Shown here: piece by piece, positions 7,000 through 12,409 of the stretch
Layout of the letters: each line of letters begins with the position of its first letter
How positions within the stretch are numbered: position 1 is the stretch's first letter
Assembly: GCA_033762295.1 (NCBI GenBank)
Contig: JANRLW010000079.1
Coordinates: 1-38,094 of the forward strand
Reading direction: 5' to 3'
DNA: 38,094 nucleotides
From: Capsulimonadales bacterium
GTDB lineage: Bacteria; Armatimonadota; Armatimonadia; Armatimonadales; Armatimonadaceae
Made by a program: the position numbers and the translations under genes
The notes under the pieces: model-generated
The model's input: the letters and a program-made list of their open reading frames with translations, nothing else
Database searches by the model: none
Told to the model about the DNA's origin: nothing

Positions 7000-7853
7000 C
7001 ACAACAACTCGAACAGGAGTTCGACCGGGTAGAAGACACCGCCGAAGGGCGCGGTGGTCAGGTTCAGGCCGTTCTTTCCGGCGATCGCCTCGCAAAAGAC
7101 CCGCCAGTGGGTCGCCGGAATAATGCGGCTCTGCCGCAGTTTGCCATTGAGGGAACCGACCAGGCCCGCTTTACCGCCGCGCGGGGAGAAACTCACCCGC
7201 ACCCGTCGGCCCTCAGGGGCGTCGATCCGGAAGGCGTAGAGCATGCCGTAGGTGCCGTCGAGCGCATGATGCATCCCGATCTCCCGCTCCCCGATCCGGA
7301 AGTAGCGGGTTCGGGTTTCACCGGAAAGGGAGACCTCGATTTCCCGGCGCGGGTCCGGAACGACGATCGTGTGCACGCCCGGCGCGGTCCAGCGGTCGTG
7401 ACGGAAGTAGAGGCGCAGCACGGCATCGGTCTCGCAGCGGACGGTGAGAACGCCGGAGGCGACCTGACGCGGGCGCAGCGGGTAGGCGAAACGCGCGAAG
7501 CCTTTCTTCCCGACGAACTCCGTGTCGGGTGAGGACAGGTAGCGGGCCATCGCCTGCCGACCGGCGACGCTCGGATCGCGGTTCGGATCGGCCAACCCCT
7601 GCCGCGCCGAGAAGCGAAGCGGACTGCCGTTCGTCTCGCGCAGACCGATCACGAACGGGGCGGTGTCGCGGGTGACATTCCGGAAGTGATAAAAAATGGT
7701 ATACGTCTCTCCCGCCCTGAGGAGCGCGTTGCCGTACGCGCCGGGAAGACGGATTTTCTCCGGATTGTTGCAGAAGAGGAGATGCTCCCCGGCAAGGACG
7801 GGACACGGAAGAGCGAGCAGAACCAGCAGTAGGACGACGATGCTTCTGGGCAT
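6999..7853 (-). CDS. Secreted hypothetical protein (284 aa)
   Basis: Signal peptide MPRSIVVLLLVLLALPCPVLA, host-like codon usage, conserved-looking motifs LLFCNNPE, GTYGMLY and PRGG. Confidence 0.75.
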   Translation of the reverse strand: MPRSIVVLLLVLLALPCPVLAGEHLLFCNNPEKIRLPGAYGNALLRAGETYTIFYHFRNVTRDTAPFVIGLRETNGSPLRFSARQGLADPNRDPSVAGRQAMARYLSSPDTEFVGKKGFARFAYPLRPRQVASGVLTVRCETDAVLRLYFRHDRWTAPGVHTIVVPDPRREIEVSLSGETRTRYFRIGEREIGMHHALDGTYGMLYAFRIDAPEGRRVRVSFSPRGGKAGLVGSLNGKLRQSRIIPATHWRVFCEAIAGKNGLNLTTAPFGGVFYPVELLFELL

Positions 7854-7943
7854 GGAACCGTGAAATCCACTTTCCGGGAGGTTATCGTCAGGGTATCATA
7901 CCGATCCGGCCCCCGCTTTCGGTGCGAAGGAATCCGACGGGGC

Positions 7944-7975
7944 GTCCGGAGTTTGGCCCGTCCGGAGTTTGGCCC
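7944..7975. repeat. Perfect 16-bp tandem duplication (GTCCGGAGTTTGGCCC x2)
   Basis: Read directly: 7944-7959 and 7960-7975. Confidence 0.9.
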
Positions 7976-8002
7976 TTCGGGTGCGGCGGAACGTACGGAA
8001 CG

Positions 8003-8011
8003 TGCTATAAT
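8003..8011 (+). promoter_or_regulatory. Extended -10 promoter (TGCTATAAT) of the ileS operon leader
   Basis: Perfect TGnTATAAT about 280 nt upstream of the ileS start. Confidence 0.7.
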
Positions 8012-8025
8012 GGTTCTTGCGTAGC

Positions 8026-8127
8026 ATGTATCAACGGACGACGGCAATGAACGTGGCGTGCGCGGCGGTCAACCGCGGCGCGGGCAACGGCGGCATAGAA
8101 CAGATTATTTCGCGCCCCTCGGCGTGA
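8026..8127 (+). CDS. Putative ileS leader peptide (33 aa, MYQRTTAMNVACAAVNRGAGNGGIEQIISRPSA; alternative start at 8047)
   Basis: Short ORF just after the -10. It has Ile codons ATA, ATT, ATT near its end, followed by a segment (8111-8126) complementary to 8190-8205. Confidence 0.6.
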   Translation: MYQRTTAMNVACAAVNRGAGNGGIEQIISRPSA

Positions 8128-8292
8128 GGCCCCTGTGCGCGCGCGGCGAGAGTTCGCCCGGTGTGCGACGGATTCGACAGGTGCCTTACCATGCCGGGGG
8201 GCGCGTCCTGTTCGAACGTTCGTCGAGGAATCCGCTGCCCGCGCGGAAGGGAACGGGCTGACGCTCCCGCCCCTTCGAGAGTTGAAATCGTA

Positions 8293-11103
8293 ATGGACTT
8301 TTCGCAAACGCTCAATCTGCCGAAGACCGATTTTCCGATGAAGGCCGACCTCCCGACACGTGAACCCCTCTGGCAGGCGTTCTGGGAGGAGAATGCCATC
8401 TATCGGAAATCGCTGGAGAAGGAAGCCCCGCGCGGCTCCTTCGTTCTGCATGACGGACCGCCGTACTCCAACGGCAATATCCACCTCGGACACTCGCTCA
8501 ACAAAATCCTGAAGGACTTCATCACCCGGCACCGGACGATGCAGGGGTACCGCTCGCCGTATGTTCCCGGCTGGGATAACCATGGCCTGCCGATCGAAGT
8601 CCAGGTCATGAAGGAGTTCCGGGAAAAGAAGCAGACCTGGACCCCGGAGACGCTCCGGAAACGGTGCCGCTCGTTCGCCGCCGAATGGGTGGAGGTGCAG
8701 AAACGACAGTTTATGCGCCTCGGAGTGCGCGGCGACTGGGAACACCCCTACCTGACGATGTCCCCGGCGTTCGAAGCGAAAATCGTCGAGGTCTTTGCCC
8801 AACTCGCGAAACGCGGCTATGTCTATCGTGGCCTGAAGCCGGTGCTCTGGGACAGCGCGAACGAAACCGCCCTCGCCAATACGGAGGCCGAGTACAGGGA
8901 TCATACCTCGCCGTCGATCTACGTCACGTTCCCCCTGGTCGAGGACGCGCAGAACGTTTTCGAGGGACTGGATCGGTCGAAACTCTCGGCGGTGATCTGG
9001 ACCACGACCCCCTGGACCATCCCGGCCAACATGGCCCTCGCCTTCCATCCCGACTTCGACTACACCGTCGCGCGGACGGAGAGCGGTGACCTGCTGCTGG
9101 TCGCCGAGGACCTTCGCGAAGCCGTGGCCCGCGAGACCGAACTGGGAACCCTCACCCCGGTGAGAACGATCAAGGGCGCGCAGGTGGAAGGCTCCCGCTT
9201 CCGTCATCCGTTGCCCGAGATGAGCCGGGATTCGCTCGCCGTCCTGGCTTCGGACTACATCACCACCGATACCGGTACGGGTATCGTTCATACCGCGCCC
9301 GGCCATGGCGCGGACGACTACTTCACCGGACGACGCTACCACCTGCCGGTGCTCTGCGTGGTCGATGGCCGCGGACGTTACACCGAGGATGCCGGACCGT
9401 TCGTCGGATGGACGACGGAGGAGGCCAATACCCGCATCCCCGAACGGCTGAAGGAGGAGGGACGTCTGCTGGCCCATAAGCAATACGTCCACTCGTACCC
9501 CCATTCGCCGCGCGCGCCGTATCGTCCGCTGCTGTTCCGGGCCACCGTACAGTGGTTCGTCTCGGTCGAGCATGACAATCTGAAGGCCCGCGCCCTGGAG
9601 GAGATCGGCAAGGTCGAGTGGTTCCCGGCGGTATCCGAGAACCGCATCCGCGCCGCCATCGCCGGACGACCGGACTGGACCGTCTCACGTCAACGCTACT
9701 GGGGCGTCGGTATCCCCGTCTTTTACGCCAACGGCGAACCGGTGATGACGGAGGAATCGCTGGCGGCGGTCGTCCGTCTCGTGCGCGAAAAGGGCACCGA
9801 TGCCTGGTACGAGGTTCCGCCCGAGGAGATCCTGCCGCCCGGATTCACCTTTAACGGCGTTGCGGCAAAGGATTTCGTCAAGGAGACCGACGTTCTGGAC
9901 GTCTGGTTCGACTCCGGCACGACCAGCATGGCGGTCCTGGATTCCGGCCTCTGGGAGGGGCTGTCCTATCCGGCCGAGGTCTATCTGGAAGGATCGGACC
10001 AGCATCGGGGCTGGTTCAACTCCTCGCTGATGCTTGGCACCGCCATCAAGGGTAGCGCGCCGTTCCGGCAGGTCGTCACCAACGGGTTTACGGTGGATGA
10101 ACGCGGGATCAAGATGAGCAAGTCCAAGGGGAATTCGGTCGATCCTCTGGGCGTCATCGAACAGTTCGGCGCGGATGTTCTGCGCCTGTGGGTGGCCTCG
10201 ACCCAGTATCAGGAGGATACCCGTCTGGGCGAGAACATCCTGAAGCAGCAGACCGATAACTATCGCCAGCTGCGCAATACGTTCCGCTTTCTGCTCGGGA
10301 GCCTGTTCGATTTCGATCCGGCAGGGGATGCCGTCCCGGTGTCCGAGATGGATCTCCTCGACCGGTACGCGCTGTCCCGCCTGCAAAAACTGGTCGCCGC
10401 CTGTACGACGGCGTTCGAACGGTACGACTTCCAGGAGGCGTCCCAGGCGATCCTGCTCTTCTGCGGCACGGAACTGTCGGCGTTCTATCTGGATGTCCTG
10501 AAGGACCGGCTCTACACGTTGCTGCCGGAGGATCCGAAACGCCGGTCGTCCCAGACCGCTCTGTATGAGATCGCGTCCGTGCTGGCGCGGCTCCTCGCCC
10601 CGGTGCTGGTGCATACGGCGGAGGAGGTGTGGCAGCATCTTCCGGGTCGGTCGCCGCTGTCCGTGCATCTCGCGGACTGGCCGGAGGTGCGAACGGAGTA
10701 TGCGGACGACGCTCTGGAGGCGCGGTTCGCCGAACTGCTCGCCGTACGCAGTGAGTTCGACCGCCAGATGCAACCGCTCAAGGACGCCCGGACTTTGACC
10801 AAGTCGGCGGCGGCGTTCGTGACCGTGATCGCGGGCGGAGAGCGGCTGGCGCGGCTGGGTGCGATGGAGGAAACGCTGCGGGAGGCGTTGATCGTACCGA
10901 AACTGGCGCTGGTCGAAGGGCCGGCGGCGGACGCCGACGGGTTTTCACTGACGATCGAACCTGCCCCCGGCGAAAAGTGCGAGCGAAGCTGGTTTGTGCG
11001 CGAGGATGTGGGCGCCGATCCGGAGTTTCCGACGCTTTCGCTGCCGCAGGCGGCGATCGTGCGGGAACTGCTTCGCCGTGCCGACGGAAAGGCGGGTTCG
11101 TGA
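8293..11103 (+). CDS. ileS: Isoleucine--tRNA ligase (bacterial type 1)
   Basis: TLNLPKTDFPMKA N-terminus, HDGPPY, HIGH motif (HLGH), GWDNHGLPIE, WTTTPWT, GTGIVHTAPGHG, EGSDQHRGWF, KMSKS. Confidence 0.98.
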   Translation: MDFSQTLNLPKTDFPMKADLPTREPLWQAFWEENAIYRKSLEKEAPRGSFVLHDGPPYSNGNIHLGHSLNKILKDFITRHRTMQGYRSPYVPGWDNHGLPIEVQVMKEFREKKQTWTPETLRKRCRSFAAEWVEVQKRQFMRLGVRGDWEHPYLTMSPAFEAKIVEVFAQLAKRGYVYRGLKPVLWDSANETALANTEAEYRDHTSPSIYVTFPLVEDAQNVFEGLDRSKLSAVIWTTTPWTIPANMALAFHPDFDYTVARTESGDLLLVAEDLREAVARETELGTLTPVRTIKGAQVEGSRFRHPLPEMSRDSLAVLASDYITTDTGTGIVHTAPGHGADDYFTGRRYHLPVLCVVDGRGRYTEDAGPFVGWTTEEANTRIPERLKEEGRLLAHKQYVHSYPHSPRAPYRPLLFRATVQWFVSVEHDNLKARALEEIGKVEWFPAVSENRIRAAIAGRPDWTVSRQRYWGVGIPVFYANGEPVMTEESLAAVVRLVREKGTDAWYEVPPEEILPPGFTFNGVAAKDFVKETDVLDVWFDSGTTSMAVLDSGLWEGLSYPAEVYLEGSDQHRGWFNSSLMLGTAIKGSAPFRQVVTNGFTVDERGIKMSKSKGNSVDPLGVIEQFGADVLRLWVASTQYQEDTRLGENILKQQTDNYRQLRNTFRFLLGSLFDFDPAGDAVPVSEMDLLDRYALSRLQKLVAACTTAFERYDFQEASQAILLFCGTELSAFYLDVLKDRLYTLLPEDPKRRSSQTALYEIASVLARLLAPVLVHTAEEVWQHLPGRSPLSVHLADWPEVRTEYADDALEARFAELLAVRSEFDRQMQPLKDARTLTKSAAAFVTVIAGGERLARLGAMEETLREALIVPKLALVEGPAADADGFSLTIEPAPGEKCERSWFVREDVGADPEFPTLSLPQAAIVRELLRRADGKAGS

Positions 11104-11606
11104 AGTTATCGACCCTCGGGTTTTATGTCATCGCGATCGGGATCGTCGCTCTGGATCAGGCGGTAAAGGCCTGGACGCGGGCGACGCTTCCGGTGGGCGG
11201 AACGATCCCACTCTGGAAGGACGTATTCGAGCTGTCCCATGCCCAGAACCAGGGGATGGCCTTTTCGTTGCTGGAAGGGCAGCGGTGGCCGCTTGCGGGG
11301 GCGGCGATCCTGGTGGCCGGGGTGATTATCGTCGCCCAGCGCCGAATGGCCGACCGGACACCGCTCCTCCTGGGATTGGCGCTGGCCATGCCGCTGGGCG
11401 GGGCGGTCGGTAACCTGATCGATCGGCTCCGGTTCGGTTTTGTCACCGATCTGTTCTATTTCAAATTGATTAACTTTCCGGTCTTCAATGTGGCGGACGC
11501 CGCCATCACGGTCGGGATGGCGCTGCTGTTCTGGCATACCCTGACGGTACGGGAACCGGAACCCGCCGCCGTCGTTCCGCCGCTCCCGTCGAACGAACCG
11601 TCCTGA
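11100..11606 (+). CDS. lspA: Lipoprotein signal peptidase II
   Basis: GTG overlaps the ileS stop. DQAVK, N.GMAFS, GGAVGNLIDR and FPVFNVAD motifs; classic ileS-lspA order. Confidence 0.96.
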   Translation: MKLSTLGFYVIAIGIVALDQAVKAWTRATLPVGGTIPLWKDVFELSHAQNQGMAFSLLEGQRWPLAGAAILVAGVIIVAQRRMADRTPLLLGLALAMPLGGAVGNLIDRLRFGFVTDLFYFKLINFPVFNVADAAITVGMALLFWHTLTVREPEPAAVVPPLPSNEPS

Positions 11607-11635
11607 CCGCTTCCGAGATTTTGAGGGATACCAAC

Positions 11636-12409
11636 GTGCTGCCTGTCCTGTTTCATATTGGCAACTTTCCGGTACGCTCCTGGGGCCTGCTGCTGATGGT
11701 GGGCTTTCTGGCGGGGACCTGGTGGGCGGCGCGCAACGCCCGGCGTTACGGAATCGCGCCCGAGGACGTCTGGGATATCTCGCTGGTCGGTCTGTTCGGC
11801 GGCGTGGTCGGGGCGCGGCTCTTCTGGGTGGCACAGAACCTTCCCTATATCGCCCGGCACCCGCAGGAGATCGCGGCCGTCTGGACCGGGGGAATGACGT
11901 TTTACGGGGGGCTTTTCGGCGGGATTCTGGCAGGGATGCTTATGTGCCGCCGCAAAAAGGTAAACATGGCGGATATGGCCGACCTGGCGGGTCTGGCCTT
12001 CCCGATCGGTTATTTCTTTGGGCGGATCGGCTGTTTTCTCAATGGCTGCTGTTACGGCGGAGAGTGCGATTTGCCCTGGGGCACCCGGTTTCACCTGCCG
12101 AACGGAACGATGACGCCGCCGTCCCATCCGGCCCAGCTGTATGCCGCCGTGGCGGCGGTGATCATGTTCCTTGTACTGCGGACGATCGAGCGTCGGCGGG
12201 CGTTTCCCGGTCAGGTCATACTGAGCTTTGTCGGCCTGTATGCGATTTATCGGTTCTTCATCGAGTTCGTCCGCGAAGGCGCGACGGCGGACCTGGCGGG
12301 TATCGCTCACCTGACGGTCGGGCAGGTCTTCAGCCTCGGGGTGGCCGTGGCGGTCGCCGTCTGGTACGTCCTGGCCGCCCGGCGTCCGGTCCGATCGACG
12401 ACTCGATGA
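11636..12409 (+). CDS. lgt: Prolipoprotein diacylglyceryl transferase
   Basis: GARL, WTGGMTFYGG, GRIGCFLNGCCYG, HPAQLY and RFFIEFVR motifs. GTG at 11636 follows GAGGGA. Confidence 0.95.
   Translation: MLPVLFHIGNFPVRSWGLLLMVGFLAGTWWAARNARRYGIAPEDVWDISLVGLFGGVVGARLFWVAQNLPYIARHPQEIAAVWTGGMTFYGGLFGGILAGMLMCRRKKVNMADMADLAGLAFPIGYFFGRIGCFLNGCCYGGECDLPWGTRFHLPNGTMTPPSHPAQLYAAVAAVIMFLVLRTIERRRAFPGQVILSFVGLYAIYRFFIEFVREGATADLAGIAHLTVGQVFSLGVAVAVAVWYVLAARRPVRSTTR

Follow-up and report, generated by a model that had tools for sequence, protein, structure and literature searches.

A probable isoleucine-responsive leader-peptide attenuator upstream of ileS in the Armatimonadaceae

What controls the expression of ileS, the gene for isoleucine--tRNA ligase, in the Armatimonadaceae? 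The question is raised by a 38,094-nucleotide stretch of DNA from a Capsulimonadales bacterium (assembly GCA_033762295.1, contig JANRLW010000079.1, forward strand), which is called the window here. An earlier note, made from the sequence alone, had proposed that the region just upstream of ileS (8003-8292) encodes a short leader peptide at whose isoleucine codons a ribosome would stall and so switch the fold of the leader RNA. Comparison with relatives supports this stalled-ribosome reading. The upstream open reading frame (ORF), its isoleucine codons and a long-range helix recur in 29 of the 32 genomes of the family and in all 33 leaders, and in five genomes a further copy stands before the gene for citramalate synthase. 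The window leader probably represents a transcription attenuator found throughout the family, responsive to isoleucine and worked by the ribosome: once stalled, the ribosome would cover the 5' arm of a terminator. The parts on which this reading is built are the following.

Positions 8003-8011 (-10 hexamer 8006-8011), plus strand: extended -10 promoter element TGCTATAAT, read from the sequence.
Positions 8026-8127, plus strand: leader ORF of 33 codons plus TGA (8125-8127), with its ATG at 8026, read from the sequence; the peptide is MYQRTTAMNVACAAVNRGAGNGGIEQIISRPSA.
Positions 8089-8115, plus strand: conserved codon block GGC GGC ATA GAA CAG ATT ATT TCG CGC (G G I E Q I I S R), compared over 33 leaders.
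Positions 8111-8132, plus strand: S1, the 5' arm of the long-range helix, taken from the consensus helix; region 1 comprises the last ORF codons, region 2 the stop codon with the bases that follow it.
Positions 8180-8205, plus strand: S3, the 3' arm (regions 3 and 4), taken from the alignment and ending in an invariant GGCGCG core; TCCTGTTCGAACG follows it in the window.

The leader ORF is present where the earlier note had placed it, and it ends GGC GGC ATA GAA CAG ATT ATT TCG CGC CCC TCG GCG TGA. The note had also remarked that its only three isoleucine codons are clustered and that none is ATC. This is correct: they are ATA (8095-8097) and two adjacent ATT codons (8104-8106 and 8107-8109). 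ATC makes up 70% of the isoleucine codons in the long ORFs of the window genome, ATT 20% and ATA 10%, counted over a crude set that may include shadow ORFs. DNA upstream of ileS was compared from 38 genomes. In all 33 leaders examined there is a short ORF which ends in G-G-(I/L)-x-x-I-(I/T/M/L)-x-R, further residues and a stop codon. The first isoleucine position of this motif is ATA in 18 leaders, ATC in 13 and a leucine codon in two, so that it is isoleucine in 31 of 33. The second is ATT in 33 of 33 and never the preferred ATC. The third position is more variable, with isoleucine in 18, threonine in 13, methionine in one and leucine in one. The Gly-Gly pair is invariant as amino acids; codon positions 1 and 2 are fixed, and all four bases occur at position 3. 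The arginine codon (CGC in 24 leaders, CGT in nine) forms part of the helix. Motif positions 4, 5 and 8 vary freely.

Other properties of the region are those expected of a translated frame. An in-frame ATG with an open frame within 130 nt is found in 31 of the 33 leaders, as against 7/33 and 8/33 for the other two frames. The N-terminal part of the peptide differs between leaders, both in sequence and in length (17 to 59 residues), and the frame is kept. The window peptide matches nothing in Pfam or NCBIfam. On the attenuator reading the leader ORF would be translated, the ribosome would stall at isoleucine and stalling would raise expression. The placement of the codons relative to the helix is also fixed: the spacing ATT-NNN-NNG-CGY is invariant across the 33 leaders, and its G-CG opens the helix. 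ATT is followed by A in 32 of 33, the exception being L090, with C.

The second component is the long-range helix. An uninterrupted 16-bp helix with two G-U pairs between 8111-8126 and 8190-8205 had been described in the earlier note; the same arms are reported by an inverted-repeat tool (16 nt, 88% Watson-Crick) as one of exactly two pairs in 7990-8300, the other being 8078-8090/8232-8244. In the leaders at large, S1 pairs with an S3 segment 60-110 nt downstream, region 1 with region 4 and region 2 with region 3, and every one of the 33 has a duplex energy between -23 and -52 kcal/mol. Alignment A1 gives a consensus of 11 pairs; compensatory changes are seen at eight, a count inflated by the relatedness of the leaders. 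Paired cells amount to 93.9% against 82.5% in shuffles, and the covariation score, subject to the same inflation, is 0.464 against 0.228; neither value is reached by any of 500 shuffles. When the partner is slid by 1-3 columns, 41-60% of cells are paired. The changes take many forms, among them CCCCTCG/CGAGGGG, CTCCTGA/TCAGGAG, CCCTCCG/CGGAGGG and TTCCTTCC/GGAAGGAA. Conserved isoleucine codons and helix covariation were both found when the leaders were compared, and the element is conserved in relatives; a lack of conservation of the uORF and its isoleucine codons, which the earlier note had named as grounds for refutation, is not what the comparison shows. The 291-nt window leader as a whole folds at -139.4 kcal/mol (shuffles -126.8 +/- 4.8; z = -2.6), and 2 of 200 shuffles reach an equally good fold.

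In 20 of the 33 leaders the 3' arm runs directly into a T-rich tract, with 6 or more T in 8 nt; four more have 5 T. Since most relatives carry this tract, the ancestral output is best taken to be intrinsic termination, the helix being the stem of a terminator, with its 5' arm within the ORF. A terminator scan found a hairpin with a T-run at the expected place in two of the three relatives tried (L038 and L068); nothing was called in the third, L041, though a mismatched hairpin and T6 are visible there. Within S3 itself, a local hairpin between regions 3 and 4 of -15 kcal/mol or better can form in 13 of 30 leaders.

How widely is the element distributed? A covariance model, R1, was built from 21 leaders. 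It matches 29 of the 32 genomes of the window's family, the Armatimonadaceae going by record titles, in 12 of 12 genera; the three genomes with no match are 61-85% complete. In a phylum-wide sample R1 matches six of six family members and the window's own genome; in the other families it matches one of 144 genomes, and that one marginally (G042, E 0.009). Inspection of the G042 match showed a simple hairpin behind a gene and no leader ORF, and it was rejected as a leader. When the intergenic region was used as a DNA query, 10 of 40 relatives gave a match, eight of them on window positions 8075-8147, the end of the small ORF. All 22 family genomes in which the ileS locus was available have a short ORF ending in G-G-(I/L)-x-x-I-(I/T/M)-x-R, one to four further residues and a stop codon. 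It lies directly upstream of ileS in 21 of them and 1.7 kb upstream in G012. A degenerate DNA pattern finds 10 loci among 185,579 species genomes, all labelled Armatimonadota, Armatimonadetes or Armatimonadaceae, and eight loci in metagenomes, all before ileS. In the sister family the leader ORF is present in none of eight loci and R1 matches none of seven genomes.

Nothing known to Rfam accounts for the element. Rfam 15 gave no match on the whole window at the gathering score, T-box included, and none on 7800-8400 at E<=10; there is consequently no T-box (RF00230), as the earlier note had judged by eye. On the loci of 18 relatives, searched at the gathering score, Rfam found tRNA only. Judged on these comparisons, the element appears to be a new leader RNA family confined to one bacterial family.

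Two neighbouring arrangements were seen during this comparison. In G012 (L008/L078/L040) the leader and its T-tract are followed by a 300-aa ORF with no NCBIfam match, further coding sequence and then, 1.7 kb downstream, ileS in the same orientation, as if DNA had been inserted into the leader-ileS unit. In genus g14 of the sister family (L045, L046, L049, L050), a different stretch is conserved within about 150 nt upstream of ileS, ..GGTGGA.CCGGCGCAG...CTGCGCC.C.TGATTGG... It is readable as a short ORF (..RLR(R/H)(V/M/L)IG.L..) that has one ATT codon and holds an internal hairpin. At the gathering score these four loci have no Rfam match. The stretch may be a second, unrelated ileS leader.

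The genes behind the leader indicate what it responds to. ileS is downstream in all genera. In two genera (five genomes: G009, G017, G006, G020 and G178) a second copy of the leader precedes a gene for citramalate synthase, identified by the equivalog TIGR00977 (627 bits; cutoff 450). The leader ORFs of these copies end, for example, in ...GGLEQITRRSFA and ...GGIAQITPRPHR, and helix and T-tract are as before ileS. Citramalate synthase is the first enzyme of an isoleucine-specific pathway. An element common to this gene and ileS is best read as isoleucine-responsive. The window genome has a single R1 match, before ileS, and its own citramalate synthase is without such a leader. Sibling leaders for other amino acids were sought in the window genome with the pattern GG-X-x-x-X-x-x-R near a stop codon; of the 30 short ORFs returned, only the ileS leader looked real.

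Three details of the citramalate synthase loci may be recorded. The gap between leader copy and gene is about 480 nt in G020 (L094). In G178 (L095) an ORF of about 250 aa, starting MTRTVPIRLL, lies between the two. In the window genome, on contig C6 (L092, 705-1331), a LexA-like ORF, so named from its translation, is followed by a canonical hairpin and T6 and lies upstream of citramalate synthase.

The transcript that would carry the leader appears to start very close to the ORF. The earlier note had placed a promoter at 8003; TGCTATAAT is there, as an extended -10 element with no recognisable -35, and a -10-like hexamer stands 9-25 nt 5' of an in-frame ATG in 30 of 33 leaders. The window ATG is only 14 nt 3' of TGCTATAAT, which implies a very short 5' untranslated region with no obvious Shine-Dalgarno sequence. 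Between S3 and the downstream start codon there are 40-132 nt, and in 27 of 31 leaders this spacer holds no second -10 with 5/6 matches, so the downstream gene must be reached by read-through from the leader promoter. The four exceptions are all in genus g6 (L030-L033), where TATCAT (5/6 matches), a possible secondary promoter, lies 28 nt 5' of the ileS ATG. A separate feature of the window, some 30-65 nt upstream of the leader -10, is the 16-nt unit GTCCGGAGTTTGGCCC, present as two exact copies in tandem (7944-7975).

These parts suggest the following mechanism. Transcription would start a few bases past TGCTATAAT, and a ribosome would translate the 33-codon leader ORF. With no ribosome on region 1, the pairings 1:4 and 2:3 would close together as a single long hairpin next to the U-tract, and termination would follow. 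A ribosome on the stop codon would cover regions 1 and 2; the local 3:4 terminator, available in a subset of lineages, would then form, again with termination. When charged tRNA-Ile is scarce, the ribosome would wait at the invariant ATT or its isoleucine neighbours, 5 nt upstream of the helix. A ribosome with ATT in its A site would, by textbook footprint sizes, reach about 9-12 nt further. Such a span would take in the invariant G-C pairs at the foot of the 5' arm, which on the opposite strand adjoin the U-tract. The invariant spacing of ATT places the isoleucine codon for masking region 1 in each of the 33 leaders. With those lowest pairs covered, region 2 would hold region 3, region 4 would stay single, and transcription would read through into ileS-lspA-lgt. 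In the window copy the U-tract has decayed, and the output there could be weak or factor-aided termination, Rho or something else. The textbook attenuator follows the scheme 1:2 / 2:3 / 3:4. The logic here would be that of classical attenuation with different wiring, 1:4 being nested around 2:3 instead of 1:2 standing beside 3:4.

The leader can form further pairings, which differ in how far they are conserved.

Positions 8170-8178, plus strand: 5' strand of an 'outer' helix, GGATTCGAC, corresponding to the conserved GATTCGGCG motif of relatives.
Positions 8222-8233, plus strand: 3' strand of the outer helix, GTCG-AGG-AATCC, which pairs with 8170-8178 with a 3-nt bulge; read from the sequence.
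Positions 8098-8103 and 8208-8213, plus strand: P0, a basal extension of the long helix (GAACAG/CTGTTC), from the minimum-free-energy fold.
Positions 8133-8169, plus strand: variable central domain with an apical hairpin (GGCGA 8145-8149, TCGCC 8154-8158), from the fold.
Positions 8078-8090 and 8232-8244, plus strand: outermost helix, reported by the inverted-repeat tool (13 nt, 92%), which holds the 9-bp GCGCGGGCA/TGCCCGCGC.
Positions 8246-8276, plus strand: hairpin GAAGGG..CGGG / CCCG..CCCTTC, 16 nt before the ileS start codon, from sequence and fold.

In the leaders the outer helix joins the motif just 5' of region 3 to a segment 5-45 nt past the T-tract. For this helix 66.4% of cells pair in the raw MAFFT alignment A2, as against 20-44% after sliding; its covariation score is 0.214 (0.152 in shuffles, of which 1 of 500 comes as high). 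About 10 of the 25 rows are out of register, which makes these figures conservative. Lineage variants seen by eye include GATTCAG/CTGAATC, GGTTCGA/TCGAACC, CGTGAGCG/CGCTCACG, GGTCTGGA/TCCAGACC and GGGCTTAGC/GCCTAAGCCC. Duplex energies (mean -28.6 kcal/mol with a leader's own segments, -24.5 with those of other species) were too noisy in such GC-rich sequence, and this test was replaced by pair counts on the alignment. P0 has analogues, by eye, in L023 (GCGGA/TCCGC) and L029 (GCAGA/TCTGC). The folds of relatives also have a hairpin at the place of the central domain, unrelated in sequence. The GCGCGGGCA/TGCCCGCGC pairing of the earlier note exists, within the 13-nt repeat, but it is not generally conserved: it recurs in L052 only, with an analogue in L042 (both by eye), and is not a family feature. 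The hairpin which the note had put at about 8246-8276 is likewise real in the window, but no counterpart was seen in the spacers of relatives and it is window-specific.

Several observations weigh against the attenuator reading. The outer helix would bracket regions 3 and 4 and the U-tract, has no role in the model and cannot be nested with the 1:4 helix. As it covaries nonetheless, two conformers seem to be under selection; the outer helix would be formable only in read-through RNA. The switch itself was modelled by masked equilibrium folding of 20 leaders, with a 28-nt ribosome mask. With the mask at ATT, the 3' end of the distal arm is still paired with uORF sequence in 13 of 20, a class that also counts pairs with the rest of the arm outside the mask and, possibly, spurious ones with ORF sequence 5' of the mask; in five it is in the local terminator hairpin, and in two it is unpaired. 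Equilibrium folds thus do not yield the switch, and the model needs kinetics in which the region 2:3 pairing forms first. With the mask at the stop codon, the local 3:4 hairpin forms in 12 of 20 leaders.

Other difficulties concern the terminator and the promoter. Nine of the 33 leaders have at most 4 T in their best 8 nt after S3: the window, the four g6 genomes, L037, L042, L044 and L090. In the window the best 8-nt stretch has 4 T and the longest T run is 2, and a terminator scan of 7600-8600 finds no terminator-like site. The window organism uses ordinary intrinsic terminators elsewhere, such as that after the LexA-like ORF. The window copy has lost its U-tract, and loss of function or leaky control is also possible there. 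The promoter which the earlier note had proposed is missed by a two-hexamer sigma-70 scan, which called no plus-strand promoter in the window. The codons also raise doubts. There are one to three isoleucine codons per leader, just one in the citramalate synthase leader L068; textbook leaders carry more cognate codons than this. Gly-Gly and arginine are as conserved as the isoleucine codons, and simple codon sensing leaves Gly-Gly unexplained. L036 (G018) is the one leader in which ATG and motif do not share a frame; in the closely related L038 and L008 they do, and L036 may contain an assembly indel or be a decayed leader.

Alternatives to the attenuator must meet the same evidence. One concerns only the output step of the window genome, where the helix or the stalled ribosome could govern Rho access, RNA stability or translation of ileS instead of intrinsic termination. 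The earlier note, seeing no U-tract, had favoured translational or Rho-dependent control. Its observation on the window holds, and the option stays for the window genome only; in most relatives the T-tract (20/33) points to intrinsic termination. The window, g6 and three other lineages have no T-tract and yet keep ORF and helix in full, and for Actinobacteria it has been suggested, in passages of PMC1262725, that leader peptides without terminators act via Rho. On the other side, no conserved pairing with the ileS start region was found, and neither the 8246-8276 hairpin nor the outermost helix is conserved. A different output in the window genome is thus a tentative possibility, somewhat unlikely on balance. 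Another proposal makes the nascent peptide G-G-(I/L)-x-x-I-(I/T)-x-R the sensor or sensitiser, either by arrest in the ribosome or by response to a small molecule (free isoleucine), with the helices reading the stall. TnaC, which responds to tryptophan, is a parallel; sensors of this class, SecM among them, halt the ribosome through a conserved motif of the nascent chain in the exit tunnel. We know of no arrest peptide with this motif. The amino-acid invariance of Gly-Gly over all four third-position bases speaks for it, as do the persistence of the motif in leaders with a single isoleucine codon, L068 (leucine first, threonine third) and L038 (leucine first), and the failure of ATT ever to be swapped for the preferred ATC. 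Against this, invariant G-C pairs of the helix account for the arginine codon and the preceding G, and motif positions 4, 5 and 8 are free to vary. A stall at the stop codon under high isoleucine would moreover not alter the outcome, since the released and the stop-bound states would both predict termination. The peptide as sensor is accordingly improbable. A combined design is doubtful too, if slightly less so. In it the Gly-Gly...Ile...Arg chain would force a stall at one non-preferred ATT or sense isoleucine, the terminator would be doubly locked (region 4 closed by the ORF end or by the local arm), and the further helix would refold the read-through RNA.

The remaining two explanations dispense with a sensing ribosome. 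If the element were RNA only, binding tRNA-Ile or isoleucine--tRNA ligase in the manner of a T-box or an operator, the short ORF would be incidental. The specifier codon of a T-box is followed by a purine, and the invariance of ATT at the nucleotide level, followed by A in 32 of 33 leaders, would suit such an element, as would the strong, conserved and covarying structure. However, no T-box is matched even at E<=10 in 7800-8400, nor at the gathering score in the loci of the 18 relatives. Frame and start codon are kept in 31/33 leaders (7-8/33 for the other frames), the ATG stands at a fixed short distance from the promoter, the glycine codons show a codon-position pattern, and L090 has ATT followed by C. 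Taken together these make an RNA-only element very unlikely. Still harder to credit is a separate gene for a small protein, complete with terminator, whose position upstream of ileS is incidental. The conserved peptide motif and the terminator-like element after the ORF would fit it, but that terminator has its 5' arm within the coding sequence and its arms 60-110 nt apart; the unit precedes two isoleucine genes, ileS and citramalate synthase; 27 of 31 leaders have no -10 between unit and downstream gene; and the peptide matches no family.

The genes behind the window leader follow in the order expected from the earlier note, with the ileS start at 8293 and lspA-lgt behind it.

Positions 8293-11103, plus strand: ileS, isoleucine--tRNA ligase, 936 aa (TIGR00392, 880.6 bits).
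Positions 10977-11606, plus strand: lspA frame, downstream of ileS (TIGR00077, 124.5 bits).
Positions 11621-12409, plus strand: lgt, downstream of lspA (TIGR00544, 153.7 bits).

If the attenuator reading is right, the Armatimonadaceae, a barely studied family represented mostly by metagenome bins, would gain a defined isoleucine regulon, comprising ileS-lspA-lgt and, in some genera, citramalate synthase. A leader RNA family missing from Rfam would be added, and R1 is usable at once for annotation. Leader-peptide control of a synthetase would extend beyond the proteobacterial pheST and the predicted actinobacterial attenuators to a lineage where T-boxes might be expected. Should the conserved peptide aid stalling, the element would link hungry-codon attenuation and arrest peptides, which are usually treated apart. 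The peptide-assisted double lock, if true, would be a new design of amino-acid attenuator, common to a synthetase gene and a biosynthetic gene.

How does the element compare with known systems? In pyrBI and pyrE of E. coli, and in the drug-dependent leader peptides of cat and erm genes, a ribosome on one hairpin arm blocks the hairpin; those systems sense UTP-dependent coupling or antibiotics, not amino-acid supply. Leader-peptide attenuation of a synthetase gene is known for E. coli pheST, with the pheM leader peptide. Leader-peptide attenuators have been predicted for Streptomyces trpS and leuS, and actinobacterial ileS genes have translational T-boxes, according to passages of PMC1262725. 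The principle of leader-peptide control of synthetase genes is therefore not new, being known elsewhere; full-text literature searches found no description of this element or of leader peptides in Armatimonadetes, subscription journals lying outside the coverage. In Caulobacter crescentus, a ribosome-profiling study names CCNA_03934 'ileS leader CDS' in the passages available (PMC4117421); it is also a small coding sequence upstream of ileS. The ileS T-boxes of Bacillota and Actinobacteria share more with the element: the same gene, presumably the same signal (charging of tRNA-Ile), and a leader RNA with alternative pairing. However, a T-box binds tRNA directly and needs no translation, whereas here a frame is conserved and no T-box is matched at either threshold used. 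With the attenuators of E. coli pheST and Streptomyces trpS and leuS no relation in sequence or in Rfam was found; the likeness is in layout: ahead of a synthetase gene stand a short ORF containing codons for the cognate amino acid and then a terminator. The element differs from them in having just one to three cognate codons, set in a conserved peptide motif. It differs as well in its architecture: the 5' arm of the terminator is inside the ORF, the 1:4 pairing is nested around 2:3, and an extra helix brackets the terminator.

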